Shown piece by piece: positions 3,287-30,349 of a stretch of DNA of 64,000 bases. The notes beneath the pieces are model-generated. The model worked only from the letters and a program-made list of their open reading frames with translations. It was not told where the DNA came from and did not search any database. A program made the translations under genes and the position numbers. The stretch comes from an uncultured bacterium (GTDB lineage: Bacteria > GCA-001730085): contig CAZMGY010000021.1 of the NCBI GenBank assembly GCA_964565945.1, forward strand, positions 44,300 to 108,299, read 5' to 3'. Each line of letters opens with the position of its first letter. The stretch's first letter is position 1.

Positions 3287-3363
3287 CGCGGGGTGGAGCA
3301 GACTGGAAGCTCGTTGGGCTCATAACCCAAAGGTCGAGGGTTCGAATCCCTCCCCCGCTACCA
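3287..3363 (+). tRNA. tRNA-Met (CAT), initiator type
   Basis: 77-nt cloverleaf read by hand: acceptor CGCGGGG/CCCCGCU with a 1-72 mismatch, D-stem GAGC/GCTC, anticodon stem with three G-C pairs next to loop CTCATAA (anticodon CAT), T-arm GAGGG-TTCGAAT-CCCTC, encoded CCA. Near-identical in layout to E. coli tRNA-fMet. Confidence 0.85.
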
Positions 3364-4477
3364 ACTCTATAGACGGCTGGCTAGAATAATTGTCATTGGC
3401 AACTAATCTGGCGAGCCCTTTTTTTATGTCTGCGTTTTTCATAGGATTCTCCTGTGAGGCTATGCTTAAAATACCGGCCAAAGAGCCGTGAAGATCAATT
3501 GATAGATCATCCTGCCCAGCTTTTGGGGTGAGGGTGATTTTCTCGATCAGCCCCCTTAAAATCAGCGCAGCTTCCCCTCTGTTTTCTTCTTGGTCTAAAG
3601 ATGCGCGTAAATCACTGATTTGCCTGCGATAGCGCTCAGCCATGGCAGGGTGAAGCATAGGCGCGGATTTTGGCGTGGCTTCGAGCAAGGTTTCCAACTC
3701 TTTGAGGCGCTCTGAGGCTCTCTCCAGATCATCTTTTATCAAATCCACGGCTACACCGTCTTTGATGGCCTGGATGATGTTCTCGCGCTCCTTAGCGAGT
3801 TTAGCAGCCTCTGCGCGGTAGCCCTTTAAGCTCTGATCATGCTGGCTTTGCAGCTTATTAAAGTGCTTCGTATATTCCGCGCAAAACACCTTCAAGAGAT
3901 CATCTCTCATGAGATGGGTTTGTAAGGCTCCGAGCACCAGAGCCTCGATGCGCTCACGTTTGATGCTCTTTTTATTGGCGCACACGCTAGAGCCTTTATT
4001 GCGGGATTGTGAGCAGCCATAGCGCTCAGAATTGATCTTGGCATAGCCACCGCCGCATATTCCGCATTTTAGTAGCCCAGAGAGCAGATAATTGGGGCGG
4101 TTATTGCGGTGCAGCCCCTTAAGGCTGGTATCAAGGGTCTTTTGACGGGATTTGGCAGCATCCCAAAGCTCCTGATCAACAATCCGTAAATCAGGCACAT
4201 CTTGCCTGATCCAATCCGCCTCATCGTTTAGGCGGGTAACGCGCTTGCCCGTAGCTGGGTCTTTGATAAAATGCTGGCGGTTCCAGATTAATTCCCCAAT
4301 ATAAAGATGGTTATTTAAGATGCCGGTTCCGCGCCTGCGATTACCATTGATGGTCGATTGCCCCCAGGCCTTGCCTGAGGGGGCAGGGATGCCGTCTTTG
4401 TTCAGCGCATCGGCAATTGCCTTGGGAGATTTATTTTTAAGGGCGTATTCTTCGAATATGCGCTTAACGATTTTGGC
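3320..4477 (-). CDS. large serine recombinase, C-terminal recombinase/zinc-ribbon portion (downstream of an in-frame stop)
   Basis: Reading frame is open from 4477 to 3320 and continuous with the 4478..5011 ORF except for one TAA at 4478-4480. Translation includes 'WGQSTINGNRRRGTGILNNHLYIGELIWNRQ' (recombinase-domain signature) and a Cys-rich 'CGICGGGY...CSQSRNKGSSVC' zinc-ribbon. The 3' end overlaps the tRNA 3' end. Confidence 0.7.
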   Translation of the reverse strand, partial: AKIVKRIFEEYALKNKSPKAIADALNKDGIPAPSGKAWGQSTINGNRRRGTGILNNHLYIGELIWNRQHFIKDPATGKRVTRLNDEADWIRQDVPDLRIVDQELWDAAKSRQKTLDTSLKGLHRNNRPNYLLSGLLKCGICGGGYAKINSERYGCSQSRNKGSSVCANKKSIKRERIEALVLGALQTHLMRDDLLKVFCAEYTKHFNKLQSQHDQSLKGYRAEAAKLAKERENIIQAIKDGVAVDLIKDDLERASERLKELETLLEATPKSAPMLHPAMAERYRRQISDLRASLDQEENRGEAALILRGLIEKITLTPKAGQDDLSIDLHGSLAGILSIASQENPMKNADIKKGLARLVANDNYSSQPSIELVAGEGFEPSTFGL

Positions 4478-5011
4478 TTAGATTTCGTTGATCTCCCGAT
4501 CACCGCGTATGGCCTCGCCCTCAGAGTTAAATTGCTTCACGACTTTATAGCCGTAAGCAATGCCGCCTCCAGATTTCCCTTTTTCAACGCGCCCGCGAAG
4601 CCCGCGCCGCGTTTTATCTGCAAGGTCTTTCAGGCACATAGCGTTCATCGTGCCTTTAAGGCCGATATGCAATGTTGAGATTTCACCTTCGGACAGAGTG
4701 ATGATTTTAACGCCAGCAAATTCCATGCGCTTATAGATACCGGCAATATCTTCCTGATCACGGGACAGGCGATCCAGCGCCTCGCAGATTAGAATATCAA
4801 ACTCACCGTTCATGGCAGCCGTTAGTAGCGATTGAATACCAGGGCGCATAAGTGATGCGCCTGATATTCCTGCATCGCTATAGCAGTTTCCTAAATCCCA
4901 GCCTTCGGCTTTGGCTTTTTCTGACGCGAGGCGGATTTGATCTTCAATCGAAGCATCGCTTTGAAGATCAGAGCTATATCTGGCATAGATGCAGGCGCGT
5001 AATTTTTTCAT
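4478..5011 (-). CDS. large serine recombinase, N-terminal resolvase/invertase catalytic domain (ends at in-frame TAA)
   Basis: 177 aa; 'CIYARYSSDLQ' catalytic-serine motif, then 'DILICEALDRLSRD' and 'KRMEFAGVKIITL', typical of the serine recombinase catalytic domain. Confidence 0.75.
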   Translation of the reverse strand: MKKLRACIYARYSSDLQSDASIEDQIRLASEKAKAEGWDLGNCYSDAGISGASLMRPGIQSLLTAAMNGEFDILICEALDRLSRDQEDIAGIYKRMEFAGVKIITLSEGEISTLHIGLKGTMNAMCLKDLADKTRRGLRGRVEKGKSGGGIAYGYKVVKQFNSEGEAIRGDREINEI

Positions 5012-5202
5012 TATTCTTCACCTTCCAATTTCTGATTTGAGAGCTGATCAGCGCAAAGCTTGTAATCTTCTTCCGCACATGTGCGGGCTAAGAGCTTTAC
5101 GAGATTAATAAGGGCTAGGTCATGATTATGACTCTCTTCCTTATGACTCTTCAAGCGCGTCTGCTTGTTTTTCCGTGCAGACTTATTCATCTGATCCCCC
5201 AT
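5011..5202 (-). CDS. hypothetical small basic protein
   Basis: 63-aa ORF immediately upstream of the recombinase gene, same strand; no recognisable motif. A directionality-factor role is speculation only. Confidence 0.25.
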   Translation of the reverse strand: MGDQMNKSARKNKQTRLKSHKEESHNHDLALINLVKLLARTCAEEDYKLCADQLSNQKLEGEE

Positions 5203-5473
5203 ATAAGGGGCGAGAACAAGATAGACCTCGCCCCCGAGAGGGAATTGGCGCGAGCAGTGGGGCTGTAAGATGCAAAGACAGTGGGTGATAATGCGCTGGC
5301 TTTGCGTAAATTCGCGCCAAATAAAAAGGGGAACATATTGCCTTCACAAAATGTACCCCTAGACTTCATGCTAGGCAGCAAAAGCTTAATAAATCCTAAA
5401 GATGCACCGTCAAACATGGCTCTCACAGCCACATTCCAAGGAGTTATTAAGATATATTTAATGCTCATAGTGC

Positions 5474-12506: not shown

Positions 12507-12853
12507 CAGCTTGTTTCCTTGCCACTATCCTGGCGATACGTATGCGGGCTTTTGATCCATTCATGAATATCTTTGAGATAAAAAGCCTTACGCTTAGCTT
12601 TCTTGTGTGAAGATAGCATTCTTGGCCTGGGGAATGTACCGCGTGCAATGCGCCTTCTTATCTCTTGCCTTGATATACCACAGAGCCTGACTGCAAGCTT
12701 TATTGGGATTAAGGCATTAGATTGGATCATTAGCGCGGCAGTAACTTCTGCCTCGAATGTTTTCTTTAAGCTAAATGATTTAAGTAAAAGCGTTTTCATA
12801 GGTGATTCCTTTCTACGATGTGCAGCTATTGCCACATATCTGCGTTTACTCAC
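12506..12853 (-). CDS. AlpA-like HTH DNA-binding protein (possible excisionase/regulator)
   Basis: 'IKLAVRLCGISRQEIRRRIARGTFPRPRML...AFYLKDIHEWI' resembles the prophage AlpA family (MerR-like HTH); true start may be an internal Met. Confidence 0.4.
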   Translation of the reverse strand: MSKRRYVAIAAHRRKESPMKTLLLKSFSLKKTFEAEVTAALMIQSNALIPIKLAVRLCGISRQEIRRRIARGTFPRPRMLSSHKKAKRKAFYLKDIHEWIKSPHTYRQDSGKETS

Positions 12854-13035
12854 CCATCCTTAATGATTGTGACGATGCCAGAAGCCCTCACAGTCTGATC
12901 TGCCTGTGACAGAACATATCGCCATATATCCATTACACACCATAATTACTTAATATTTTATTAACAACTCCCTTAAAAGCTACAGTGACAGCCATCTTTG
13001 TTTGCTGCAAAGCCGCATTGATCTGTGCGGCGGCA

Positions 13036-13563
13036 CTAATATAAATAACAGCTACTCTCCCCATCAATGACAATGCTCATGGGCTTGGCTGTCATAGAGA
13101 TAAAATCATCTATTAGATGCCATTTAGCGCTTGTCTTCCATTCGTTAGAATTTAGCCTAAGGGAAGCTTCTTGAAAGTAATTTTGCACTGCGGCAACATT
13201 TTTGTAGCCAATCGCAAATTCCAGCAGCGTATCGCTTTTGATCTTCTCAAAATGCAAATAAAGCGCACCGTCGCGATATTGTGCATATTCGTATGGAGTG
13301 GCAAAACTATTATTGATTTTAAGGCCACAATCTAATGTTTCTGGAGCGGCGGCTTTGACTGCCTCTATCGATACATTGATCCTGATCCAAACATCTGAGA
13401 TATCGGCTAAGGGAGATCGGACGCTGTAGGATATCCATGTATGAGTTTTATTGCCTGTTTTGCTGATGCGCGCTTTGCCAATCAACTCCCCCGCCCAGGC
13501 TCCAGAGCACAGGATTAAAGCCAGGACAAAGATGATGGTATTTTTCATGGGATTTGGCCTCAT
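13036..13563 (-). CDS. hypothetical secreted protein
   Basis: 175 aa with N-terminal signal peptide 'IIFVLALILCSGAWA'. Confidence 0.45.
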   Translation of the reverse strand: MRPNPMKNTIIFVLALILCSGAWAGELIGKARISKTGNKTHTWISYSVRSPLADISDVWIRINVSIEAVKAAAPETLDCGLKINNSFATPYEYAQYRDGALYLHFEKIKSDTLLEFAIGYKNVAAVQNYFQEASLRLNSNEWKTSAKWHLIDDFISMTAKPMSIVIDGESSCYLY

Positions 13564-13800
13564 TTAGGGATCGCCATTTAATTGGGCAATATCGCCCTTG
13601 AATAATTGCCATATTTGAAGCCCGAGGGCTTTGGCAATCTTTTCAACGGTGCCAATCTCAGGGCTGACTTCTCCGTGTTCAATCGCCCCGATATGGGTGC
13701 GGTGAAGGCCAGCACTCAAAGCCAGAGCTTCCTGCAACCATCTGCGCATCGCCCGAGCCAGCCGGATTTGATCTCCAAGGGTCTGCCGATATGTTTGCAC
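13564..13800 (-). CDS. XRE-family HTH transcriptional regulator
   Basis: 78 aa; 'LSAGLHRTHIGAIEHGEVSPEIGTVEKIAKALG' is a Cro/cI-type HTH. Confidence 0.55.
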   Translation of the reverse strand: MQTYRQTLGDQIRLARAMRRWLQEALALSAGLHRTHIGAIEHGEVSPEIGTVEKIAKALGLQIWQLFKGDIAQLNGDP

Positions 13801-13818
13801 GTGGCCGCCAGCCTGCTA

Positions 13819-13879
13819 TGATTCACATATGAATCATTATTGTAACGTAAAAATACTCCATTGAGTCACATATGGGTCA
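13819..13879. promoter_or_regulatory. paired operator-like palindromes between divergent XRE regulator genes
   Basis: Site 1 TGATTCA-CATA-TGAATCA (13819-13836, perfect 7-bp arms); site 2 TGAGTCA-CATA-TGGGTCA (13862-13879). Both lie in the 85-bp gap between divergently transcribed HTH genes. Confidence 0.5.
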
Positions 13880-13885
13880 AATAAT

Positions 13886-14086
13886 ATGAGCGTTATTATT
13901 CAGCGTTTAGCCATGAATATTCGGCGAAGGAGGGGTGATATATCGCAGCGTGCCTTTGCCAGCAAGCTAGGTATATCTCAATCCACTTTGGCGCGCATAG
14001 AAAACGCTGGCCAGAACACAACGCTCTCGACATTAGAGCAGCTCATGAAATCACTGAAATGCGATATAGGCGGGTTGTTCAAATGA
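13886..14086 (+). CDS. XRE-family HTH transcriptional regulator
   Basis: 66 aa; 'ISQRAFASKLGISQSTLARIENAGQNTTLSTLEQLMKSL' is a canonical XRE HTH. Confidence 0.55.
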   Translation: MSVIIQRLAMNIRRRRGDISQRAFASKLGISQSTLARIENAGQNTTLSTLEQLMKSLKCDIGGLFK

Positions 14087-14430
14087 GGTGTATATATAGT
14101 GAAGTACGGGAGCAGTAGGCAAGGCCGGTAGTTCCCGTCATCGCTTGCCAGCCGGTAAGGTTGCACTCAGGGCATTGTGAGCAACAGCACAATAGTTCCG
14201 CTATTGGTAAGTGCTTACGATGGGCGCAAGAAGTCGGTTGTATTACAAATTTCTGCGAATTTGCCCTCCAACCGCTATCTTGAGAAGGACGTTTCCCCGT
14301 CCGTTCTATCCTCAGGAGGCGCGCTAAGCTATCGAATTATTATTCGAGAGCAAGGGCTTATATGGTGCATTACCGGCATTGAGCCGAGTGCTGCACCAGC
14401 GAACGTGTGGCCGTTCTAATCACCACTTAT

Positions 14431-14545
14431 GGGAGCCTTCAAGCTGCCCCCAAAACCCCCATGATCAGGGGAGACTTCGCTCTCCCCTAAAGCCCCATCG
14501 AGTCAGGAGCCTTCGTGCCCCTAACAACCCAGACCAACCGTACGC
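14431..14545. repeat. degenerate tandem repeat, ~35-bp unit, ~3 copies
   Basis: Adjacent units CCCCCAAAACCCCCATGATCAGGGGAGACTTCG / CCCCTAAAGCCCCATCGAGTCAGGAGCCTTCG / CCCCTAACAACCCAGACCAACCG inside a ~650-bp GC-rich ORF-poor segment. Confidence 0.45.
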
Positions 14546-14733
14546 CGTTTGGATGCCGTGAACATTTCGGTGTTCAATGCCTACCACTGTTTCGTCAGTG
14601 GAAAACGATCAACGAGCGCCCTTGGATGCAACTGAGTTATGAAACGTCATCGCCAATGATGCAATATTCGCTATTGACATAGAGTTCGTTTTCGATTCTA
14701 ATAATCTGCATCATCGTTAATGAAGGAATTATT

Positions 14734-15330
14734 TTGAAGCTCACTGATCTTGCAATTATATCCGCTGGACACCCATTCAGAGGGAAAATACTGGAAAAAT
14801 CCGGTAGCGGTATCCGTGCCGTGCAGATGAAAGACATCTCTATTGATCAGGGTGTTTGTTGGGAGAGCGTTATCGAAACGGAGCTTTCTGGCAAAAAAAA
14901 ACCTGCTTGGCTGATGAATGGGGATATCCTTTTCGCAGCCAGAGGCGCACGTAATTATGCCGTACTGGTAGATCATATTGTAGGGAAAGTCGTTAGTGCT
15001 CCTCATTTCTATATTCTCCGTGTGAACGAGCAATCGCTTTTGCCGGAATTTCTGGTCTGGCAGCTCAATCAAAAACCCCTGCAAAACTATTTCGACAGGG
15101 CAGCGCAAGGGTCGTTTACCAAGAGCATTAAACGCTCAATTTTAGAATGTGCTGAAATCACAGTACCGCCACTAGATAACCAAAAGCAAATCGTAGGCTT
15201 GCACATGACATTGATGCAAGAAAGAAAGCTCTATTCTGAATTGACCAGAAATGCGGATAAGTTAATGAATTCTATTGCCAGCAAACTTGCGGCAGGTAAA
15301 ACTCTACAGTTAAAAGGAATAAAAATATGA
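14734..15330 (+). CDS. hsdS: type I restriction-modification specificity subunit, single-TRD (half-size HsdS)
   Basis: 198 aa; one target-recognition-like region followed by an S-subunit-type conserved helix ('QKQIVGLHMTLMQERKLYSELTRNADKLMNSIA'); stop overlaps the hsdM start (ATGA). Confidence 0.55.
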   Translation: MKLTDLAIISAGHPFRGKILEKSGSGIRAVQMKDISIDQGVCWESVIETELSGKKKPAWLMNGDILFAARGARNYAVLVDHIVGKVVSAPHFYILRVNEQSLLPEFLVWQLNQKPLQNYFDRAAQGSFTKSIKRSILECAEITVPPLDNQKQIVGLHMTLMQERKLYSELTRNADKLMNSIASKLAAGKTLQLKGIKI

Positions 15331-16850
15331 ACACACCAATAAGCCAAGATGCTATCAACAAAGCCTTATGGGGGGCATGCGATACATTCCGTGGCACGGT
15401 CAGCGCTGACACATACAAAGACTTTATCCTAACCATGTTGTTCCTGAAATACATCTCTGATGTTTGGCAGGATCACTATGACAAATACAAAGAAGAGCAT
15501 GGTGACGAGCCAGAGCTTATTCATGAAATGATGAAGAATGAGCGCTTTGTTCTTCCCGATGGATCAAGCTTTTATACCCTTTATGAAAAACGCCATGAAC
15601 CCGGCAATGGTGAGCGTATCGACCAAGCTCTTCACGCATTGGAAGAGGCTAACGGCACTAAGCTTCGTGATGCATCAAAATCCGTGTTTCAGGATATCAG
15701 TTTTAACACTGATAAGCTCGGTGAAGAAAAACAAAAAAACACCATTCTTCGCCACTTGCTGGAAGATTTTGCCAAAGATGAATTAAACCTTCGCCCCAGT
15801 CGTGTTGGATCACTCGATGTGATCGGTAACGCCTACGAATATCTGATTAAGCACTTTGCCGCAGGTGGTGGGCAAAAAGCAGGAGAATTCTATACCCCGC
15901 CCGAAGTATCTGACCTGATTGCAGAATTGCTAGACCCACAAGAAGACGACACAATTTCTGATCCGGCTTGTGGTTCTGGTTCCTTGCTCATGAAATGTGG
16001 TCGTAAAATTAAAAAGCGTTTTAACAGCAAAAAATACGCACTCTACGGGCAAGAAGCTATTGGCTCTACTTGGTCTCTGGCGAAAATGAATATGTTCCTG
16101 CATGGCGAAGACAATCACAAAATAGAGTGGGGAGATACAATCAGAAACCCTAAGCTACTGAATAAGCATGGCGGCTTGATGCATTTTGATATTGTGACGG
16201 CTAATCCTCCATTCAGTCTCGATAAATGGGGGCATGATGAAGCTGATCATGATCCGTTTGGACGTTTTCGTCGTGGTATTCCTCCAAAGACCAAAGGTGA
16301 TTATGCCTTTATTTCGCATATGATCGAAACTATGGAGCCGACTACAGGGCGTATGGGCGTTGTTGTTCCGCATGGTGTTTTGTTTCGTGGTAGCTCAGAA
16401 GGAAAAATCCGCAAACAATTGATAGAAGAAAATTTGCTTGATACGGTGATAGGACTTCCTGAAAAGCTCTTTTACGGTACAGGGATACCGGCGGCGATTC
16501 TGATCTTTAAGAAAAATAAGGCGGATAGCAATGTCCTGTTCATTGATGCCAGCCGTGAATGTAAGACGGGTAAAAACCAAAACCTACTCACGCTTGATAA
16601 TATTAAAAAAATAGTCAAGACATATAAGGTGCGTAAAAGCTTTGATAAATATTCGTATTTGGCCAATTTTGAGGAGATTGAGGAAAACGACTTTAACCTT
16701 AATATCCCGCGTTATGTCGATACTTTTGAAGAGGAAGAAGAAATTGACCTATTGGCAGTGCGTAAAGAGCGTGAAGAACTAAAAACTCAACTCGTCGAAC
16801 TGGAAACGGAAATGGATGGTTATCTCAAGGAGCTGGGTTATGGTTCCTGA
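15327..16850 (+). CDS. hsdM: type I restriction-modification DNA methyltransferase subunit M
   Basis: 507 aa; 'YTPPEVSDLIAELL', 'DPACGSGSLL' (AdoMet motif I) and 'IVTANPPFS' (NPPF motif IV) of N6-adenine MTases. Confidence 0.92.
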   Translation: MNTPISQDAINKALWGACDTFRGTVSADTYKDFILTMLFLKYISDVWQDHYDKYKEEHGDEPELIHEMMKNERFVLPDGSSFYTLYEKRHEPGNGERIDQALHALEEANGTKLRDASKSVFQDISFNTDKLGEEKQKNTILRHLLEDFAKDELNLRPSRVGSLDVIGNAYEYLIKHFAAGGGQKAGEFYTPPEVSDLIAELLDPQEDDTISDPACGSGSLLMKCGRKIKKRFNSKKYALYGQEAIGSTWSLAKMNMFLHGEDNHKIEWGDTIRNPKLLNKHGGLMHFDIVTANPPFSLDKWGHDEADHDPFGRFRRGIPPKTKGDYAFISHMIETMEPTTGRMGVVVPHGVLFRGSSEGKIRKQLIEENLLDTVIGLPEKLFYGTGIPAAILIFKKNKADSNVLFIDASRECKTGKNQNLLTLDNIKKIVKTYKVRKSFDKYSYLANFEEIEENDFNLNIPRYVDTFEEEEEIDLLAVRKEREELKTQLVELETEMDGYLKELGYGS

Positions 16851-18075
16851 TGGGTGGAAAGAAGAAAATCTTGGAACTCTTTTTGAGTTTAAAAATGGCG
16901 CTAATACTGAGGCAGCCAATTACGGTTCTGGAATTAAGTTTGTTAATGTGATGGACGTGTTTGGTAATCACTTTATTACTAGCGAGAAAATTCGTGAAAG
17001 AGTTAATCTGCCTGAAAAAAAGATTAATTTATATTTGTTAAAAATGGGCGACGTATTATTTAATAGAACGTCAGAGGTTTTCGACGAAATTGCTCTAACT
17101 GCTGTTTATATGGATACTTCACCAGCAATATTTGGTGGCTTCGTTATTAGGGGGCGACCTAAGGCTAACGAACTTGACTTTAAATTTTGTATTTATTGTT
17201 TTTCATCTTATAGAGTCCGTAAGGAATCTATAAGAAGAGGGCAAGGGGTAATACGATCGAACATTGGTCAAAAAGACCTACAGTATGTTCCGTTGTTAGT
17301 TCCTCCTATTATAGAACAAAAGAAAATAGCCAAAATATTATTGACTTGGGATCGAGCGATTGAGGTAACAGAAAAACTAATCAGCAATAGTCAGCAACAA
17401 AAAAAGTCCCTCATGCAACAACTCATCACTGGCAAAAAACGCCTTCTGGGATTTAGTGATGAATGGGAAAAGATTCGATTAAAGCCTCTTTTAGAGGAGG
17501 GAAAGGCTAGAAATAAAGATAGTTCAATACAACGAGTATTAAGTGTTACTAATCATAGCGGTTTTGTATTACCAGAAGATCAATTTTCAAAACGTGTGGC
17601 GAGCAGTAATGTCAGTAACTATAAAATAGTTAAACGTGGAGAATTTGCATATAACCCATCTCGTATAAACGTTGGTTCATTTGCGCGTCTTGATGATTAT
17701 GATGAGGGTATTCTTAGCCCAATGTATGTTGTTTTCAGTGTTAAGAAAGATTCGCTATTTAGTGACTTTTTCTTTCAGTGGATGTCATCACATCACGCAA
17801 AACAACGTATTCTTTCAAGTACGCAGGGATCGGTAAGAGATTCAGTCAGTTTTCAAGCACTTTGTGCGTTCCCGTTTTTGCTTCCATCACTAAAAGAACA
17901 ACGAAAAATTGCGTCAGTTCTTTTATCTGCGGATAAAGAAATTGAAACTCTTCAACAAAAACTCGAATACCTCAGCCAAGAAAAAAAGGCGCTGATGCAA
18001 CAACTCCTCACTGGCAAACGCCGTGTGAAAATTGATGAAGATGGTATTTCTCAGAAGGAGGTTGTGCGTGCCTGA
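16840..18075 (+). CDS. hsdS: type I restriction-modification specificity subunit S (two TRDs)
   Basis: Two variable regions, each followed by a conserved repeat ('QKKSLMQQLITGKKRLLGF' and 'EKKALMQQLLTGKRRV'); start overlaps the hsdM 3' end. Confidence 0.85.
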   Translation: MVPDGWKEENLGTLFEFKNGANTEAANYGSGIKFVNVMDVFGNHFITSEKIRERVNLPEKKINLYLLKMGDVLFNRTSEVFDEIALTAVYMDTSPAIFGGFVIRGRPKANELDFKFCIYCFSSYRVRKESIRRGQGVIRSNIGQKDLQYVPLLVPPIIEQKKIAKILLTWDRAIEVTEKLISNSQQQKKSLMQQLITGKKRLLGFSDEWEKIRLKPLLEEGKARNKDSSIQRVLSVTNHSGFVLPEDQFSKRVASSNVSNYKIVKRGEFAYNPSRINVGSFARLDDYDEGILSPMYVVFSVKKDSLFSDFFFQWMSSHHAKQRILSSTQGSVRDSVSFQALCAFPFLLPSLKEQRKIASVLLSADKEIETLQQKLEYLSQEKKALMQQLLTGKRRVKIDEDGISQKEVVRA

Positions 18076-19144
18076 TATTATTTCATTTGAAGCCGCTATT
18101 GCGGAGTCAGAACAATATAAAAAACGTCATTTATTGCTAGGCAATGGTTTTAGTATTGGCTGTCGAGCTGACATATTTCATTATGAGTCTCTTTTTGGGG
18201 AAGCTGATTTTTCGGCAATTCCTGAGGCTAAACAGGTTTTTGAATCTTTACAGACACAGGATTTTGAAGTTGCAATTCGCGCACTTGAGAATGGTTCAAA
18301 AATTCTACCTATCTATGTGCCCAATGATGACGCAAGCGTTCAGGCAATGAGTAATCATGCTATTGCGCTTAAAGATTTGTTAGTTGCCACAATTGCTGGC
18401 AACCATCCTCCTAATCCTAATGCAATAGATGATCCAGAGTTTTGGGCTTGCCGACAGTTTTTAAGTTATTTCCTCGCTTCGGATAAGGGAGGACATGTCT
18501 TCACTCTAAACTATGACTTATTACTGTATTGGGCATTGATGCATGATGACAATCCATTTGATGAGGAAGTGGTGGAGCTGAACAAGAATGATGGGTTCGG
18601 AAATGATGAAGATGATCCAGAAGCGGATTATGTTCTCTGGCAAGGTGAGACCTCCGCGCATAGTGCAAATATACTTTTTCTGCACGGTGCACTTCATCTA
18701 TTTGACTCGGGTGCAGAGCTACAGAAATATACTTGGGTTCGTAAGGGTGAACCATTGGTGGATCAAGCGCGCACTGCAATAGCTGCGAATAAATTCCCTC
18801 TTTTTGTCGCGGAAGGAACAAGTACACAAAAGAAAAACAAAATTCGCCATAACGCATATCTTTACCAGTGTTTTAAGGTTCTGACAGCCAACGCACAGAC
18901 TGGCACGCACTGTTTTTTCATATTTGGACATTCGTTAGCTGATAGTGATGACCACATCCTAAAACGTCTTGGTAAAGGCCGTTTTAAGAAATTATATGTA
19001 GGTATTTTTGGTGATGCGGATACGCCAGAAAATAGGAATGTGATTGCACGCGCAAATGCTATCGCAGCACTTAGACATGATAGGTATCCTCTTGAGGTGG
19101 TGTTTTTCGATTCCTCATCCGCTAATGTTTGGGGGAATGATTAA
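18068..19144 (+). CDS. DUF4917 / SIR2-like domain protein embedded in the type I R-M operon
   Basis: Gly-rich 'LLLGNGFSIG', 'LFLHGALHLFD' and 'IFGHSLADSDDHIL' resemble the SIR2-like/DUF4917 arrangement (from memory, not searched). AGGAGG RBS and GTG at 18068; the track ORF starts at 18032. Overlaps hsdS and hsdR stops/starts. Confidence 0.6.
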   Translation: MPDIISFEAAIAESEQYKKRHLLLGNGFSIGCRADIFHYESLFGEADFSAIPEAKQVFESLQTQDFEVAIRALENGSKILPIYVPNDDASVQAMSNHAIALKDLLVATIAGNHPPNPNAIDDPEFWACRQFLSYFLASDKGGHVFTLNYDLLLYWALMHDDNPFDEEVVELNKNDGFGNDEDDPEADYVLWQGETSAHSANILFLHGALHLFDSGAELQKYTWVRKGEPLVDQARTAIAANKFPLFVAEGTSTQKKNKIRHNAYLYQCFKVLTANAQTGTHCFFIFGHSLADSDDHILKRLGKGRFKKLYVGIFGDADTPENRNVIARANAIAALRHDRYPLEVVFFDSSSANVWGND

Positions 19145-22100
19145 TGGCTTTGATTCCCAAATTCCAAGAAGAATACAGCGCGAAAATTCCAGCATTAACG
19201 CTGCTTCATAATCTTGGTTGGACGTTCTTATCACCCGAGCAAGCTTTATCCGCTCGCAATGGCAAAACCAGTGAGGTGGTTTTACGTGAAGTGTTGAGAG
19301 AAGAACTTCGAAAACGCCGTTTTACTTTTGCAGGGAAAGAACGCGTTTTTTCTGAAAATGCTATTGATAATGTTATTGCGGAACTATGCGCGCCAGCTTT
19401 GAACGAAGGCTTAGGTGTTGCTAATGAAAGAATATATAACCATTTGCTTTATGGTATATCGGTAAAAGAGTTTATTGACGGTAAGAAAGTAAATCCAACA
19501 ATCCAAATTATTGACTGGGACAATGTTGATAATAATAGTTTTCTTTTTACCGAAGAATTTAGTGTTTTAAGAACGGGTGAAGTTGAATCCCGTAGACCAG
19601 ATATTGTTTGTTTTGTGAATGGATTGCCATTTGCAGTGATCGAAGCAAAACGTCCTGATGGTCATACCAATAAGGGATTGACCATTGATGAAGGTATTTC
19701 CCAGAATATCCGCAATCAACGCAATGATGAAATCCCTCATTTATTTGCATACTCCCAACTTCTTTTTTCAATCAATGGGGCTGATGGTCGTTATGGCACG
19801 CAAGGTACATCAAAACCGTTTTGGGCACCTTGGCGCGAAGAAGATATTTCTGAAGGAGAATTTTATATCCTGAAAAATAAAGCATTGAGTTCTGATGCAA
19901 AAGATACACTGTTTTCGCATAGACCAAAGCAGGATCGTAAGTGGTATGAAGAGCTTATAGTTGGTGGCGAACTTGCCGTTACTGAACAAGACAAAATGCT
20001 CATAAGTCTTCTTTCTCCATCACGGTTGATTGAAATGACAAGATATTTTGTATTGTTCGATAAAAAAATAGGGAAAGTGGCAGCACGATATCAGCAAGTA
20101 TTTGGTATTAAGCGTCTGATCGAGAGAATTAATACAAAAGATAATAAGGGCGTGCGTCAGGGTGGTGTTATATGGCACACCACTGGCTCTGGTAAATCTT
20201 TTACCATGGTCTTCTTGTCGAAAGCTCTTATCTTGCATGGCTCATTGAAGCAGTGCCGTATCGTGGTCGTAACTGATCGTGTTGATTTGGAAAGCCAGTT
20301 AAGTACGACCTTTAGTACAGGCGGAGAACTTGCCAGCAAGAAGGATAAAGCAGCCGCTATTGCAACATCTGGAAGAATGTTAGCAGAACAGATTTCTAAA
20401 GGTAATGAGCGAATAATGTTTTCTATTATTAACAAATTTGCTGTCGCCGCCAAAATGCAAGAGTGTCATAACCTAAGCTCTGACATTATCGTTCTTATTG
20501 ATGAAGGACATCGTTCGCAAGGCGGTGAAAACTTTATCCGTATGCGCAATGCTCTGCCTAATGCAGCTTTTATTGCATTTACAGGAACGCCGTTGTTAAA
20601 AGATGATAAAACGGAAAATAAATTCGGCTCGATTGTTCATGCCTATACGATGCAAAGAGCAGTTGAAGACAAAGCTGTTACACCTCTGCTATATGAAGAA
20701 CGTATCCCTGATCTTGATGTAAATGAACGAGCGATTGATAGTTGGTTTGATCGGATTACAGAGGGTCTCACAGATGAGCAGAAGACGGATTTAAAAAAGA
20801 AATTTGCCAAGAAAGGACACCTTTATCAATCCGAAGATCGTATTCGTTTGATTGCTTATGATATAGCTAATCATTTTGTGAAGAATATTGATGATGGACT
20901 TAAGGGGCAGATTGCTTGTGATAGTAAATTATCAGCCATTAAATATAAGCAATTCATGGATGAGCTTGGTCTGTTTAAATCTGCGGTTGTAATGTCTGCG
21001 CCAGATACCAGAGAGGGCAACACAGATGTTGATGAAGCTACTATCCATGAGGTGGCTAAGTGGTGGAAGGAAAATGTAGGATCACAGGATGAGAAAAGTT
21101 ACACAAAAAATATTGTTAAGCGATTTGAGGAAGATAATGACCTTAAAATTATAATCGTAGTTGATAAGTTACTTACTGGATTTGATGAACCGAGAAATAC
21201 AGTTCTTTACATTGATAAGCCCCTCAAAGAGCACAGCCTGATTCAAGCTATAGCGCGAGTTAATCGTTTGCATGAGAAAAAGAAATTCGGTTTGCTTATT
21301 GATTATCGCGGTATTCTGGCAGAGCTTGATACCACAATAGCTAAATATCAGGATTTGGCTAGCCGTACTCAAGGTAGATTTGATATTGAAGACCTTGAAG
21401 GTCTCTATCAACAAATGAGCACCGAATATAAAAAACTACCGCGTTTGTATAAAGATTTATTAGCAATATTCAAGAATGTTAAAAATAAAGGCGATATTGA
21501 ACAGCTTCGTCAGGTTATAGTTCCAAAAGTACAAGAACAACATGGTGAAATGGTAGATATTAATTTAAAAGCACGTGAAGACTTCTATGATCGATTAAGT
21601 GAGTTTGCTAATTGTTTGAAAGTTGCTTTGCAATCAGCTAGTTTTTATGAAGATAAAAGCTTCACAGAACAGGACAGAAAGCACTACAAAGAAACTGTTA
21701 AACAATATTCATCATTGCGTCAACTTGCCAAGGCTGATGCGGGTGAGACAGTCGATTACGACGAATATGCCGAGCAAGTAAAGAAGCTGATGGATAAGCA
21801 TGTTGTCGGTGTGGAGGTTAAAGAACCTGATGGTGTTTATGAAGTAGGTAAGATGGGTAAATCTGATCCAAAAGACTGGTCAGAAGATAAAACTCGAAAC
21901 GAAACCGATATTATAAAAACTCGTATTACTCGCATGATAGAGCAAAGCTTGCGTGATGATCCTTATGCGCAAGAAGTTTTTTCTAAGCTACTTAAGCAGG
22001 TAATAGAGGAAGCAGAAACCTTGTTTGACCATCCGTTGAAGCAATACATGCTGTTTAAAGAATTTGAAGAAAAAGTCGAAAAACGTGAAGTCGATAGTTT

Positions 22101-22419
22101 GCCTGATAAGTTTGCAGATAATAAGCACGCACAAGCCTACTATGGTGTTTTGAAAATGTATGTTGGCGAAAACCTTTCTACCATAGATGAAGAACTATCT
22201 GACCGATGGGTGGGGCTTTCTTTCAATGTAGATGAGATTATTACGAATGCTATAGCCGAGCACTCAATAAATCCCCAAAACATTGAATCCGAAATTCGAA
22301 ACAAGCTACTTCCTATGATCTTTAGTGAGTGTAAGAAAGTAGGTTCAGGAATAGATCAGACTAAGGCAATAACTGAAAGAATTGTTCAGATTGTACGCGT
22401 AGGACTAAATCACTCATGA
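19144..22419 (+). CDS. hsdR: type I restriction enzyme R subunit (endonuclease/helicase)
   Basis: 1091 aa; helicase Walker A 'TTGSGKSFTM' and DEAD-box-like 'VLIDEGHRSQ'; start overlaps the upstream stop (TAATG). Confidence 0.92.
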   Translation: MALIPKFQEEYSAKIPALTLLHNLGWTFLSPEQALSARNGKTSEVVLREVLREELRKRRFTFAGKERVFSENAIDNVIAELCAPALNEGLGVANERIYNHLLYGISVKEFIDGKKVNPTIQIIDWDNVDNNSFLFTEEFSVLRTGEVESRRPDIVCFVNGLPFAVIEAKRPDGHTNKGLTIDEGISQNIRNQRNDEIPHLFAYSQLLFSINGADGRYGTQGTSKPFWAPWREEDISEGEFYILKNKALSSDAKDTLFSHRPKQDRKWYEELIVGGELAVTEQDKMLISLLSPSRLIEMTRYFVLFDKKIGKVAARYQQVFGIKRLIERINTKDNKGVRQGGVIWHTTGSGKSFTMVFLSKALILHGSLKQCRIVVVTDRVDLESQLSTTFSTGGELASKKDKAAAIATSGRMLAEQISKGNERIMFSIINKFAVAAKMQECHNLSSDIIVLIDEGHRSQGGENFIRMRNALPNAAFIAFTGTPLLKDDKTENKFGSIVHAYTMQRAVEDKAVTPLLYEERIPDLDVNERAIDSWFDRITEGLTDEQKTDLKKKFAKKGHLYQSEDRIRLIAYDIANHFVKNIDDGLKGQIACDSKLSAIKYKQFMDELGLFKSAVVMSAPDTREGNTDVDEATIHEVAKWWKENVGSQDEKSYTKNIVKRFEEDNDLKIIIVVDKLLTGFDEPRNTVLYIDKPLKEHSLIQAIARVNRLHEKKKFGLLIDYRGILAELDTTIAKYQDLASRTQGRFDIEDLEGLYQQMSTEYKKLPRLYKDLLAIFKNVKNKGDIEQLRQVIVPKVQEQHGEMVDINLKAREDFYDRLSEFANCLKVALQSASFYEDKSFTEQDRKHYKETVKQYSSLRQLAKADAGETVDYDEYAEQVKKLMDKHVVGVEVKEPDGVYEVGKMGKSDPKDWSEDKTRNETDIIKTRITRMIEQSLRDDPYAQEVFSKLLKQVIEEAETLFDHPLKQYMLFKEFEEKVEKREVDSLPDKFADNKHAQAYYGVLKMYVGENLSTIDEELSDRWVGLSFNVDEIITNAIAEHSINPQNIESEIRNKLLPMIFSECKKVGSGIDQTKAITERIVQIVRVGLNHS

Positions 22420-23165
22420 GGAATTTAGCTACACACAGGAATGGTTCAATTCAATATGGAGATACAGCCATTAATTTTTCTATTGAACCCAGAGCAACAG
22501 ATGCACCAAAAGTTTTAATAAAAGTACATCCAGATTGCCGCGTTGTAGCACTTGCACCACCGATGGCATCTCATGATGAAATTATGCAGGCGGTAAAGAA
22601 ACGAGCACGATGGGTTTGTAAACAAATGCGGTACTTTGATAAACAACGCGAAAATATTCTCCCGCGTCACTATGTTAGTGGCGAAAGTCATTTCTATCTT
22701 GGGCGTAGGCATCTATTAAAGGTTCAAGAAAATGCTCAAGATACTCCCAAGGTGAAGTTGCTACGGGGTGTTTTGGAAGTTCAAGTACGCAAAGTAAGCC
22801 CAGAAAAAATAAAAGCAATGCTTTTTGATTGGTATAGAGTTCGTGCTAAAGAAGTATTTGATCGTAGGCTAGAAGAAGTTGTTTCTAAAACATTGTGGGT
22901 AAATGATAAGCCATCTATTCACCTTCTTTCTATGCAGACGCAATGGGGGAGTTGCTCGCCGAAAGGTCAGTTGACAATTAATCCTCATTTGGTGAAAGCA
23001 CCAAGAGATTGTATTGATTATGTGCTACTTCATGAGCTTTGCCATATTGCAGAACATAATCATAGTGAACGGTTCTATCGGCTAATGAAGCAAGTTATGC
23101 CTCATTGGGAAAAAGTAAAAGAAAGACTCGATGGTATGGCTTACTTTTATTTGAACGATACTTAA
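22416..23165 (+). CDS. M48-family zinc metallopeptidase (DUF45/YgjP-like), R-M associated
   Basis: 249 aa; HExxH zinc motif in 'YVLLHELCHIAEHNHSERF'; ATGA overlap with the hsdR stop. Confidence 0.8.
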   Translation: MRNLATHRNGSIQYGDTAINFSIEPRATDAPKVLIKVHPDCRVVALAPPMASHDEIMQAVKKRARWVCKQMRYFDKQRENILPRHYVSGESHFYLGRRHLLKVQENAQDTPKVKLLRGVLEVQVRKVSPEKIKAMLFDWYRVRAKEVFDRRLEEVVSKTLWVNDKPSIHLLSMQTQWGSCSPKGQLTINPHLVKAPRDCIDYVLLHELCHIAEHNHSERFYRLMKQVMPHWEKVKERLDGMAYFYLNDT

Positions 23166-23283
23166 GGGTTTTCATTGATTACGCATTACTGGGAACTAAC
23201 GATTGCTTGATAAATGGCTATTCGCATAGTTTTTGTTAAAAATTGAGTGCTAACCAATAGCGGACATAAGCAAAGGAGATATC

Positions 23284-26200
23284 TTGGGGAAAAAAGAAGC
23301 AAGGCGCACTAAGTCAAAGTCAACACCGCGTCAAACAGGTGGGGCAGGATACGACTTCGAAGATTTGATTGCAGCCTGGATGATGGTGAAGATGCTGCGT
23401 GAGATTAGGTTGCCAGGTGTTGAGGAGTTTGGTACAGCGATTCAATGGCAAGCGGAAGTGTTAGGTTGGGAACAGATCGATGACCTTCTGGTTACATGTG
23501 TGGTTGAAGAAGAAAAGAAAAAGCAGCTAGCCATCTCTTGTAAAAGCAACATGCAAGTTAGTGGGTCTGGGCTTCCATTTGATTTTCTCAAAAATGCTTG
23601 GTCACTATGGATAAAAGGCGAGCCTTTTAATAAGGAAAATGATTGCATGATGTTGGTTCAGAAAGGCAGCAATCAAAATTTTTTTACTGCTTGGGCAGAC
23701 CTAAAATATTGGTGTTCTGAGGGCGATGTAGAAACGGCTCTAGCACGAATTACAGCTTCTCAGAAACATAGTAAAATATACAATGGCGTTAAGGCTCCTG
23801 ATAAAAGCAGTAATTATACAAACGAAGATACTATTGCGCTTATACGCAGTTTAGAAGTTATTCCTGCAGATTTTCATTTAGCTAGTTCGGAATACGAAGA
23901 CACTTCATTATCCCATTGTCGTGATCTTTTGCAGGATGGCTCTGAAGAGACTGCAAAAAAGCTATGGGACTGGCTTCTCAAGAAAGCTAAAGTCAAACGT
24001 ATCTCAGGTGGAACATTACAGCTATCAGAGTTGTGGCAAGAATTGGTTCCAGCATTTGATTTAAAAGACCATCCAAACTTTCTTTCATCATGGAAGTCTC
24101 TTAAAGCTATATCCGAAGAATATAAGAGATCAATCGAAATTGAATTGCCTAATGGTCATAGTGTCATAAGGCCTGCCGAAGAAGACCTGATAGAGCATCT
24201 TAGAGATGGTCCAATATGTATTGTATATGGTAGCTCTGGAAGGGGTAAATCGGCGGTTGTTAAATCTACTTTAGATAAGAAGCTATCTGATTGGAATCAG
24301 GTTTGGTTTTCTCCGGAAAACCTAGACTTAGCTTCAAGTGAAAGGACTCGCTCAGAAGTGGGATTGCTTAGACCTTTGCAGGATGTACTTGCTCACTCAT
24401 CGGAAGAAAAAAATGTCCTAATTATAGATTCTGCTGAGAGGATTAACCCCGATAGCAGAAAAATTGTAAAGTCGCTTATTTCCAACCTATTGATACACAA
24501 TGGCGAACAGAAGAGTCGTTTGAACTGGCGAGTTATCATTGTTGGGCAAACCGAGGCTTGGGCATCTGGCAATTTTCATGAAATTTCAGGACTCTCTTCT
24601 ATTCAGCCTATAGAAATTTCTTCCCTTGACCCTTCGGATGTCAGAGCAGCTTTGCATTCAAGCAATCACTTATCTTGGCTTGCTTCGGATAACGAAGCGC
24701 TTATAGCCTTAGGTAACTTGAAAACTTTGGCTTGGGTAATGCGAGCTGGAACCATTTTTCCAAAAGGGGGAATGAATAGCATATCGTTGCCTGCAATCGC
24801 TGATCGTTTATGGTCGTATTGGACAAAAGATAAAATAAAACTTCAGAATCTTCTGATGCAACTTGCTGAACGTGAAGCTCAATTTGAACGTAGCTTTCCT
24901 ATCAGTGGGTTTGGTATTGATGTAAGCCAAGCTCTTGATGAAGGTTTGGAATGCTTGCCACTACGAAAAAGAAAAGAGACTAATTCAATCGAGTTTGAGC
25001 ATGACCTGGGTGCTGATTGGGCAAGGTTTCAGCGTTTAAAAGAAATAAAAAATGACATAAGCTCTTGGGCACCATTTGCTAGCAACCCTCTCTGGCATAA
25101 TGCTTTGCGCATGATGGGGCAACTCCTATTACGAGAAAAAACTGAACAAGGAACACTATGGGATGTTGTTTATGATGAAGCAGAAAAAACAAAAGTTGAA
25201 AATCCTTTAGCAGCAGATATTCTCTTAGATTCTTTGTGCCTTGATCCATTTGCTGCGCATTATCTTAATGAGCGGTCGGATATACTTTTTGCAGATAACG
25301 GGGCTCGTTTAAACCGCTTATTAAAACGTTTTCATCATATAGCGACCGTTTCAAATGTCTCTAGCGAGTCCTTGGACATTGATCCCTCGCTAAAATTGTA
25401 TTTAGAAGACATGCAAAGGTTGCCAATCTATGGTCGTTGGCCACAAATTGCACAATTTCTTTCAGATCACAAAGAACAAGTTTCCAGCCTAATCTCACCA
25501 ACTATTTCAAAACTATGTGAGACTTGGCTTACAACAACACCTCTCTATCTTGATCCTGAGGCAAATACGCCGATGCCCTATAGAAAGGTATTTGCAGAGC
25601 TTGCTTTAAGCACGGTAAGGACTTTACAACTTGAGCAAAAGAAAGGGCACTTGTGGCTCACAGATGACAGCGAAAAGCCTCTTTATGGGGCAGCATTTGC
25701 GGCTGTAAACGATCTTCCTGACGAAGTCTGCGAATGGGCTTTAGAAATGGCCTGTAGAAGACCTTGCAAAAAAGAAATACCTGAAGCGCTTGCAGCCTAT
25801 CGAGAAGAAAGAAGAAAAGAACATAGAGAAAAATTGCGCACTGATAAGGCTTATCCTGAAAGGCACGAGCGTTTACGTTCAATGCCTTCCGGTATTTCAA
25901 GCCATAGAGATTTACCTCCATGGCCATTAGGGCCACAAGGTAGTGTAGATAATACTTTTCGAGATTATTGCTTGAACTCAAACTCCATGGCTAGGCTGAT
26001 GTATCTAAGGCCAGAAGTTGCAAGCGAGTGCCTTCTTGCAATGCTAATAGATTATTCGCGTAGCCCTCTCCGAGATGATTTAGGTCTAGTGTATAGTCAC
26101 ACAGGATACCCTACGGCATATTGGAAAAGTCCATTTTTCCAGTTTTTACAGTTGAATAGCACTATAGCCATGGATTCCCTTATTTCGCTCGTTAATTTTT

Positions 26201-28536: not shown

Positions 28537-28597
28537 AAGTTTTATTGAATTATCAAACCAAACAATAACAATTTACGTTCACTTTGCACTTTAGTGA

Positions 28598-28810
28598 TTA
28601 CAGGTTACTTTGTGCGTAGTAATCGAGGTAAACCTCTTCAACCTTGTTTCCATTTGGTACTTTGACATCATGATGACCAGTGTCTAATTTTCCCTTTTCA
28701 ATTTGATCTGCAAGTGATCGTAATACCCAAGCCACGGCTTTGCCATTGCTGCAATCAATCTCTATATCGCATTTTAACCGTTCTTCGAAGTCTGGATCAC
28801 CATCGAGCAT
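28598..28810 (-). CDS. hypothetical small protein
   Basis: 70-aa ORF with AAGGAG RBS 9 nt upstream of ATG; convergent with the large NTPase gene. Confidence 0.4.
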   Translation of the reverse strand: MLDGDPDFEERLKCDIEIDCSNGKAVAWVLRSLADQIEKGKLDTGHHDVKVPNGNKVEEVYLDYYAQSNL

Positions 28811-28920
28811 GTTTTAAACTCCTTTGCTGAGCTTTTTTTATATTTGTAGGGCTTCGCTATAGAGCATGATGTGAAAACATTAATGACGAGGTCAGTTTCA
28901 GCTTTTTGACAGAAAAAGCT

Positions 28921-29100
28921 TCAAGGGCATGGTGGCATATAAGTCAATTCACTTTGAATATTTTCAATAGATGCTAAAGCATTTCTTCTTTGATGCGTAT
29001 GAGGTTCACTCATCGCAAGTTCGTTAAAAGCATTTCTTAAATATCCATGTAGCTCACTTTCGTTTTTTGCTGCCAATTCAAATCTTGTTACCAGTCTCAT
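28921..29100 (-). CDS. hypothetical small protein
   Basis: 59 aa from internal Met 'MRLVTRFELAAKNESELHGYLRNAF...' with AGGAGG RBS 6 nt upstream. Confidence 0.4.
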   Translation of the reverse strand: MRLVTRFELAAKNESELHGYLRNAFNELAMSEPHTHQRRNALASIENIQSELTYMPPCP

Positions 29101-29558
29101 TTTTACCTCCTGTTTGTGGAGGTCGCGTTTATTCACGACCTTTGTTAAAGCCGCTTGTGCGCTGGAAAAATGGACTGCACCTTTGGTCGAAATATATGGA
29201 GAAGCGTGGCAAATCTCATGCTTGCAGTTCTAATGATCTCAAGTGCTTAAATAGGTTTTATAAAAGTCTGATAAAAACGCCCCTCATACAAAAGAGTAAG
29301 AGAGGCTGAATAACTAAATTGTTGGCTCACTTGAAAAAAATAAGAGAGCCAGTTGGTTTAATAGAAAAGATGAAGGACGCTGCGCCCCCTCAAATTCAAG
29401 AATAATGACGGTTTCCATTTGGGTAAGTCTCAAATAGACCCTCCGCAATTTTTCTGGATTTTTTCACCCCCGCCTAGTCGCCCTAGTCGGCAGAAGTTCA
29501 GGCGCGAGGCAAAAACGCTTCGCTAAGAACTTCAAAACCGAATTTAGGAGATAATAAA

Positions 29559-30071
29559 ATGAGTGCAGAAATTAGAATTTATGTGGCATGTTTGGCAGCG
29601 TATAACGGCGGTAGATTGCATGGCGTTTGGATTGACGCAACCGATGAGCTGGACGATATTCAAGAGCAAGTAAATATGATGCTAAAAGAAAGCCCAGAGC
29701 CAGACGCAGAAGAATGGGCGATACATGATTACGAGGGTTTTGGTGGTTATAGCGTTAGCGAATATTCAGGGTTTGAAGAGCTTCACGATGTTGCGTCTTT
29801 TATTGAAGAATATCCAGAAATTGGTGGGGAGCTTTTAGATCATTGCTCAGACCTTGAAGAAGCCAGGAAAGCCATAGAAGAAAGCTATGCAGGATGCCAT
29901 AAATCACTTGCAGATTTTGCCGAGGAAACAACCGAGGAAACAACCGAAATTCCTGAGCATTTACGGTATTACATTGATTATGAAAAAATGGGGCGTGATA
30001 TGGAAATGAGCGGAGACGTTTACACAATTGAAACAGGTTATGAGGAAGTGCATATATTTTGGAATCATTAA
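29559..30071 (+). CDS. ardA: antirestriction protein ArdA
   Basis: 170 aa, acidic; 'IYVACLAAYNGGRLHGVWIDATD', 'EEWAIHDYEGFGG' and 'LRYYIDYEKMGRDMEMSGDVYTIE' parallel the conserved ArdA blocks (e.g. Tn916 ArdA). Confidence 0.85.
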   Translation: MSAEIRIYVACLAAYNGGRLHGVWIDATDELDDIQEQVNMMLKESPEPDAEEWAIHDYEGFGGYSVSEYSGFEELHDVASFIEEYPEIGGELLDHCSDLEEARKAIEESYAGCHKSLADFAEETTEETTEIPEHLRYYIDYEKMGRDMEMSGDVYTIETGYEEVHIFWNH

Positions 30072-30119: not shown

Positions 30120-30349
30120 AGTGCTTAAAAAAATCGCCACCGAAAGATGGTACTTTTCGGCGGTTGGTGAGCGTTTCGTCGCTCAATCTCGACCACTGTT
30201 TTGCCAGTGGATTACGACAAGGGTAATATTTATTGTTTGGTAGTTATATGTTTATAGGTGTAACCACTTCTATAATTTGGTGCATTAAGATAGTCTAGTT
30301 ATGTGAGGGGTTAGATATGAAGATAATTGAAGTATCAGGAATATAGAAA

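Follow-up and report, generated by a model that had tools for sequence, protein, structure and literature searches.

The control region analyzed here belongs to an element that spans tRNA-Met (3287-3363) to tgt (36056) within a 64-kb window, by which we mean the whole stretch of DNA under analysis. This element encodes a split serine recombinase, a TraG/VirD4-type (T4) coupling protein, a tyrosine integrase with a DUF6538 N-terminal domain, an AlpA-like excisionase, a Type I restriction-modification (R-M) system, a YgjP-like peptidase, an Avs4-like STAND NTPase, ArdA, AbiE, and a MobA/VirD2-type relaxase. No phage structural genes were seen among the scanned ORFs, and phage and viral collections returned no match; the host, which encodes both a relaxase and a coupling protein, is an integrative mobilizable element (IME) and no prophage. 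PIMEs, whose core set is int, alpA, replicase, trbJ, and trbL (10.64898/2026.01.12.698999), were tried as the element family and rejected: an integrase and an AlpA-like gene are present, but trbJ/trbL, repA, and luxR were sought among the scanned ORFs of the element and none was found, and the regulator pair is XRE/XRE. A literature search for DUF6538 found nothing directly relevant. The serine recombinase is split on the minus strand into a Resolvase N-terminal domain (4478-5011) and a zinc-ribbon recombinase domain (3320-4198), and the latter, 3' ORF overlaps the tRNA-Met gene; the split recombinase may be a decayed second integration module or part of a tandem element.

The first-pass annotation had described two related palindromes, 43 bp apart and sharing a consensus, in an 85-bp gap between oppositely oriented small HTH genes. 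Each of these points proved correct: the gap separates the genes of HTH78 and HTH66, both of which match Pfam HTH_3, and the sequences and coordinates of the palindromes, which we call O_L and O_R, are exact (Table 1). HTH78 is the first gene of a leftward operon, has homologs in 6 clusters among 5.8 billion, and matches the PADLOC Control_protein model (E 4e-12). Only four PDB entries matched it, including NHTF (3vk0), C.AhdI (1y7y), and C.BclI (2b5a), and HTH78 falls in the C-protein-like branch of XRE proteins. The next gene of the operon, p170, is placed by gene callers at a start of MKNTII (~13548) and has an N-terminal signal-like sequence and only 13 homolog clusters in a large database; it found no match in Pfam, PADLOC, PHROG, or NCBIfam, and its AlphaFold model is all-beta with a mean pLDDT of 50, which is low confidence. 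HTH66, on the opposite strand, has homologs in 9 clusters among 5.8 billion and matches Control_protein weakly (3e-6). The closest solved relatives of its family are HipB antitoxins, and HTH66 itself scores 36.5 bits against the NCBIfam HipB model, whose cut-off is 79. This small gene is easily overlooked by automated annotation: in the near-identical contigs L002, L004, L005, and L006, the HTH66 ORF is identical and intact, yet no gene is called there.

To the right of the regulators lies a defense cluster, composed of a Type I R-M system in which a DUF4917/PDC-S21 gene is embedded, the YgjP-like peptidase, and the Avs4-like STAND NTPase. The palindromes had been placed just upstream of this cluster; the direction is right, but the first cargo gene after HTH66 starts 647 bp further on, with no called gene between, and the interval holds a conserved leader. 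Within the Type I R-M locus (14734-22419), an extra half-size specificity-like ORF (198 aa, TTG start) precedes hsdM, and the DUF4917 gene (PADLOC PDC-S21) sits between hsdS and hsdR.

Table 1. Features of the control region and leader, in window coordinates; promoters are consensus predictions
Feature	Coordinates	Strand	Description
p170	13036-13563	-	Secreted-looking protein, 170-175 aa; always directly downstream of HTH78
HTH78	13564-13800	-	78-aa single-domain XRE regulator, GTG start; Pfam HTH_3, E 2e-10
P_R (predicted)	13794-13822	+	-35 TTTGCA, 17-nt spacer, extended -10 TGcTATGAT
P_L (alternative candidate)	13846 to 13818	-	GTTACA-N17-AATCAT, from the relaxed scan
O_L	13819-13836		TGATTCACATATGAATCA, by halves TGATTCACA and TATGAATCA; 18-bp palindrome, probable operator
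P_L -10 (candidate)	13839-13844	-	TACAAT, no recognizable -35; inferred start ~13832, inside O_L
O_R	13862-13879		TGAGTCACATATGGGTCA, by halves TGAGTCACA and TATGGGTCA; imperfect palindrome, probable operator
HTH66	13886-14086	+	66-aa single-domain XRE regulator; Pfam HTH_3, E 3.6e-12
Leader	14087-14650	+	Conserved noncoding region, ~550-650 nt, between HTH66 and the variable cargo
Twin hairpin, copy 1	14555-14612	+	UUCG-like loops, at the leader 3' end; covariance model R1, 79.8 bits
Twin hairpin, copy 2	30164-30221	+	After ArdA with its terminator, before the next operon; 76.9 bits

The palindromes and the predicted promoters

The arms of O_L, when extended to 8 nt, are perfect (ATGATTCA/TGAATCAT) and flank a 4-nt center; written as two 9-nt halves, O_L matches itself at 8/9 positions. 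O_R is less regular, its arms TGAGTCA/TGGGTCA agreeing at 5/7 positions, and it ends 6 nt before the HTH66 start codon; the spacing of 43 bp is measured start to start. When the 64-kb window was searched with the shared consensus TGANTCACATATGNNTCA, allowing <=2 mismatches, the only two matches were O_L and O_R, against a mean of 0.19 in shuffled sequence, and 0/100 shuffles equaled the observed count. The next-best matches to O_L elsewhere in the window carry 5 mismatches. A further operator-like site, as a possible separate site for HTH78, was sought across the window and none was found.

P_R was the only plus-strand sigma-70-like site that a consensus scan of 13400-14900 returned, and a relaxed scan found it again. 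Its -10 merges with the left arm of O_L, and its inferred start, at ~13829, falls inside O_L, with O_R at ~+33 to +50 relative to that start. In eight close loci, the P_R -35 (13794-13799) and the -10 TATGAT are invariant, and all eight retain the TG of the extended -10, with a changed base between TG and -10 in one. A second plus-strand candidate (13861-13890) was discarded on the ground that its -10 runs into the start codon. On the minus strand, the best candidate for the -10 of P_L reads TACAAT or TAGAAT in the close loci and TATACT in locus L021, despite divergence of the spacer, and the center of O_R lies near -38 of the TACAAT candidate. With either P_L candidate, O_R is upstream of the promoter core, and the robust point is that O_L would sit on the core of both divergent promoters, as these are predicted from consensus, whichever candidate is taken. 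As the center-to-center distance of 42-43 bp is about four helical turns, O_L and O_R should lie on the same face of the DNA.

For comparison of the control region we used eight distinct versions, taken from contigs in which HTH78 is 83-95% and HTH66 80-94% identical; all related sequences are metagenomic and rare, and the phylogenetic depth of this close family is limited. In an alignment of these eight loci, the mean pairwise identity is 0.989 for O_L with the adjoining extended -10 and 0.972 for O_R, compared with 0.605 for the 14 bp to the left of this block, 0.757 for the spacer between O_L and O_R, and 0.87-0.89 for the flanking coding DNA. The palindromes thus surpass the genes on either side in conservation, which amounts to a clear phylogenetic footprint. 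O_L is invariant in 8/8 loci, and O_R varies only by single substitutions, in L012/L032 and L031. The differences that set O_R apart from O_L (G at position 4 and GG at positions 14-15) are conserved as well, as would be expected for sites of graded affinity. No other conserved block was found when the 85-bp gap was searched by alignment of the close loci. The divergent arrangement of HTH78 and HTH66 is kept in all close loci, and the spacing of 42-43 bp is found in every locus that carries HTH78. A DNA similarity search with 13000-14800 against E. coli genomes, plasmids, and phages gave no match.

The palindromes might be something other than operators: repeats arisen by chance, hairpins or terminators in RNA, or integrase or excisionase sites. 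Each of them could indeed form a short hairpin, and both contain CATATG. The shuffles and the footprint exclude chance, however; the predicted start of P_R lies inside O_L, so that only part of the hairpin would be transcribed, and there is no U-tract after it; and the motif stands upstream of HTH66 homologs in loci that have no integrase nearby. We regard this explanation as almost certainly wrong. The earlier proposal that the palindromes serve as operators thus gains a strong footprint and divergent predicted promoters at O_L, and O_L and O_R very probably do act as operators in a local control circuit on a mobilizable island. An operator pair between divergent regulators is a well-known arrangement, a control region in the textbook style.

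Assignment of the sites to a regulator

An 18-bp palindrome with the core CACA·T(A/G)TG (the dot separates the halves) stands directly upstream of HTH66 relatives in every subgroup examined, down to ~50% identity, and in distant loci the equivalent proximal sites lie 6-23 nt upstream of the homolog. At L021, where the protein is 76% identical to HTH66, two sites, CGATACACATGTGAATCA and TGAGTCACATATGCATCA, lie 42 bp apart, and the divergent partner is a 90-aa HTH protein related to HTH78. Loci L015-L018 have a single site, TGAGTCACATGTGAATCG, 9-10 nt before the ATG, with an ETF operon upstream and no HTH partner, and L019/L020 have a single degenerate site together with the decayed remnant of an HTH78 gene. 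In ~15 metagenomic loci at 54-62% identity, the site reads TTATTCACA·TGTGAATAa and lies 22-23 nt before the ATG; in the two loci of this subfamily that were examined (L042 and L035), the divergent neighbor is a CsrA-HTH fusion and not a relative of HTH78. Microbulbifer and related genomes (48-58%) have two sites, TTACCCACA·TGTGGGTTA and TAACCCACA·TATGGGTAA, 30 bp apart, and there the neighbors of the HTH66 relative lack an HTH domain.

A divergent partner of some kind, often an HTH protein, accompanies most HTH66 relatives. We infer from co-occurrence that the sites belong to HTH66, because the type of partner changes or disappears while the design of the site stays; the assignment also rests on the minority of loci that have no HTH partner. 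The recognition-helix region of HTH66, ISQSTLARIEN, takes the form ISQ(S/A)TLAR(I/L)E in the family and is invariant or nearly so. Overall, O_L and O_R are most likely operators of HTH66, which would repress itself, and what the comparison adds is a well-supported operator prediction for a rare XRE family.

Two observations were made in passing among these relatives. The CsrA-HTH fusions (L042 3430-3867 and L035 1630-2109, both on the minus strand) join an N-terminal CsrA domain (Pfam CsrA, E 5e-8 and 6e-7) to a C-terminal XRE HTH, an unusual union of an RNA-binding with a DNA-binding domain. In L024, L026, and L027, which are from Microbulbifer and relatives, the proximal palindrome shares bases with the probable start codon of the HTH66-like gene; in L027 the ATG is at the center of TAACCCACATATGGTTAG, so that occupancy of the operator would cover the translation start region.

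We consider it reasonably probable that HTH66 acts as an autorepressor and that O_L gates the leftward promoter too. The circuit would be located at the boundary between the maintenance and transfer backbone of an integrative mobilizable element and its cargo. An HTH66 dimer would bind each 18-bp site, through half-sites of the form xGAtTCAyA with the core CACA·TrTG; P_R would make HTH66, and P_L would make HTH78 and p170. Lying across the predicted -10 and start of P_R and also across the predicted P_L core, O_L when occupied would repress HTH66 and shut off, or compete with, leftward transcription. O_R would be the weaker site, ~40 bp downstream of the P_R start and upstream of P_L, and, lying about four helical turns from O_L, could be an auxiliary site that serves cooperative binding or looping, forms a roadblock, or modulates P_L. 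HTH78 would be a second regulator that may compete for both sites; because the gap holds no second conserved motif, HTH78, if it acts there, must use O_L and O_R. The sequences show that the two sites exist, that their conservation far exceeds that of their surroundings, that they go with the HTH66 family, and that they overlap predicted promoters; the identity of the binder, the sign of regulation, cooperativity, and any bistability are matters of inference.

The autorepressor model has a counterpart in XRE antitoxins of the HipB type, which are small dimeric autorepressors acting on palindromes upstream of their own operon and, as noted above, are the closest solved relatives of HTH66. Unlike HipB modules, the present locus has no toxin gene after HTH66 and has a noncoding leader and variable defense cargo instead.

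Rival circuits

The first-pass annotation had read the locus as a cI/Cro-like bistable switch. In such a switch, HTH78 and HTH66 would bind both sites with opposite preference and repress each other, one state leaving the element quiescent and the other switching on either the rightward module or the leftward one, which comprises HTH78, p170, and possibly the AlpA-like excisionase and integrase. The locus resembles the cI/Cro immunity regions of lambdoid phages (and of 434 and P22) in several respects: small divergent HTH regulators are encoded around related, slightly different operators of 17-18 bp in a shared promoter region, one of the sites would overlap the promoter cores, and its occupancy would decide the direction of transcription. 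That the two operators differ consistently and lie in overlapping predicted promoters favors a switch, as does the want of any other conserved motif in the gap that HTH78 could use. At long range, in L021 and L050, an HTH66-type gene is again paired with a C-like HTH gene, and the leftward side faces the excisionase-like gene and the integrase. The divergent layout of an XRE pair is confirmed, and several features speak against a cI/Cro switch. Lambdoid switches typically have three operators, compared with two here, and the predicted promoters overlap at O_L and are not back to back. Both proteins are single-domain and lack the C-terminal domain and RecA-sensitive cleavage module of cI; searches of Pfam, PHROGs, and NCBIfam for an S24-like peptidase, an oligomerization domain, or a sensor domain in HTH66 and HTH78 found the HTH domain only. 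Neither protein reached the cut-off of a curated cI, Cro, or RstR family, the matches in PHROGs and NCBIfam being generic XRE matches below cut-off, and the host is an IME, not a phage. The term repressor/antirepressor, which had also been used, is wrong for a cI/Cro pair.

Other observations weigh against a switch as well. The recognition helices of HTH78 and HTH66 differ (RTHIGAIEHG and SQSTLARIENA, respectively), the palindrome persists where HTH78 has been replaced or is absent, and comparison ties the sites to the HTH66 family alone. Further, the HTH78-p170 operon does not directly adjoin the AlpA-like gene and the integrase: gaps lie between them, and in other loci genes are inserted there. 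We hold a bistable switch to be a live alternative, but a rather unlikely one. Divergent regulator pairs are also known from other islands. SaPIs have the Stl/Str pair in this layout. PIME1, a mobilizable island with immune cargo, has a divergent alpA/luxR pair (preprint 10.64898/2026.01.12.698999). The present locus resembles both in that a divergent regulator pair stands between an integration/excision module and the rest of the island, but the protein families differ, the pair here being XRE/XRE.

HTH78 could itself bind the sites, in the manner of the autoregulating controller (C) proteins of R-M systems. According to this logic, HTH78 at O_R would activate its own operon and at higher concentration would bind O_L to repress it, and the role left to HTH66 would be that of a competitor or of a regulator in its own right. 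In addition to the Control_protein match and the relation to C.AhdI and C.BclI described above, the resemblance to C proteins (C.AhdI, C.PvuII, and C.Esp1396I) extends to a place on mobile DNA next to an R-M system and to an autoregulatory logic built on two palindromic sites, one stronger than the other. The absence of a -35 beside a good -10 in the best P_L candidate recalls C-dependent promoters (PMC2632904), and O_R, at about -38 of this candidate, is at the position of a class II activator. C-family operators with a single palindrome and a weaker second copy have been described, as have C-family genes in close pairs and others without linkage to R-M systems (PMC2632904). However, the perfect and presumably stronger site is here the proximal, repressing one, which is the reverse of C systems. 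The C-box consists of two palindromic boxes that adjoin each other within ~35 bp immediately before the C gene (PMC2632904), compared with sites that lie 43 bp apart, with a variable spacer and without the GTG spacer of such boxes. HTH78 is transcribed away from the R-M genes, is followed by p170 and not co-transcribed with a restriction gene, and is kept with cargo that is not R-M; the design of the sites tracks the HTH66 family and not HTH78. Experimentally characterized C-boxes differ in sequence from O_L and O_R. Taking both sides together, we judge C-protein logic to be improbable at this locus.

A conserved candidate leader ahead of variable cargo

Between loci that differ in cargo, the interval from HTH66 to the first cargo gene is still 83-90% identical in nucleotide sequence. 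The possibility of a missed gene in 14087-14440 was rejected, as no ORF is preserved across seven copies, which carry 1-nt indels. The plus strand of the leader folds at -133 kcal/mol (z -3.9 compared with shuffles) into multiple hairpins, and the minus strand at -118 kcal/mol (z -3.1). Among the 7-8 distinct sequences compared, whose mean identity is 81%, one helix appears as CGGTTG...CAACCG or GTGCGTG...CACGCAC and another as CAAATT...AATTTG or CAAAATG...CATTTTG. These compensatory changes are suggestive and, coming from 7-8 similar sequences, not statistically secure. One of the sequences compared (L031) is interrupted after ~170 nt of leader by an insertion of the IS110 family, the transposase gene of which is at 4359-5420. 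Over 12800-15000, Rfam gave no match at E<=1, a scan of viral contigs with three invariant leader blocks was likewise negative, and a literature search for comparable conserved leaders found nothing directly relevant. The region is a candidate for a new structured leader RNA.

At its 3' end the leader carries a twin hairpin that occurs a second time farther right. The two copies bracket the block of Type I R-M, Avs4-like, and ArdA genes, each ~130 nt upstream of an operon start, and their stems differ by compensatory changes. With a covariance model of the twin hairpin, each related locus gave a single copy and unrelated loci gave none. The plus strand of 14087-14734 showed no terminator-like site, so read-through from P_R into the cargo is possible. 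The cargo may also have a promoter of its own, a candidate for which lies in cargo-specific DNA at 14674-14702 (TTGACA-N17-TCTAAT, without the -11 A).

The same regulators precede different genes in other loci: the HTH78-p170/HTH66 module stands before an AAA_13 ATPase in L010, L014, and L034 and before a set of SNF2 helicase, DUF4391, and methylase genes in L011. When the cargo of the present element (14734-30071) was compared with these four loci, homology broke at ~14536-14650, and the region behind the regulator-leader module looks like a hotspot for the exchange of defense cargo. We tentatively propose, as a possibility, that the operator pair, HTH66, and the leader form one conserved expression platform in which the leader is a new RNA element. 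Such a platform would characterize a rare family of marine gammaproteobacterial mobilizable islands, into which unrelated defense systems (Type I R-M, an AAA_13 ATPase, or a SNF2 helicase with a methylase) would be swapped. P_R, gated by O_L and O_R, would transcribe through the leader into whichever cargo is docked, and the leader, with its recurring twin hairpin, would control expression of the cargo or mark the junction of cargo exchange.

The leader and the swappable cargo are less ordinary than the operator pair. The defined pair of operator and protein, an 18-bp site and a 66-aa protein, is quickly testable. As a module of regulator, operator, and leader standing before different defense systems, the region is a candidate for the site at which cargo is exchanged and also for the control of potentially toxic immune cargo upon entry into a new host.
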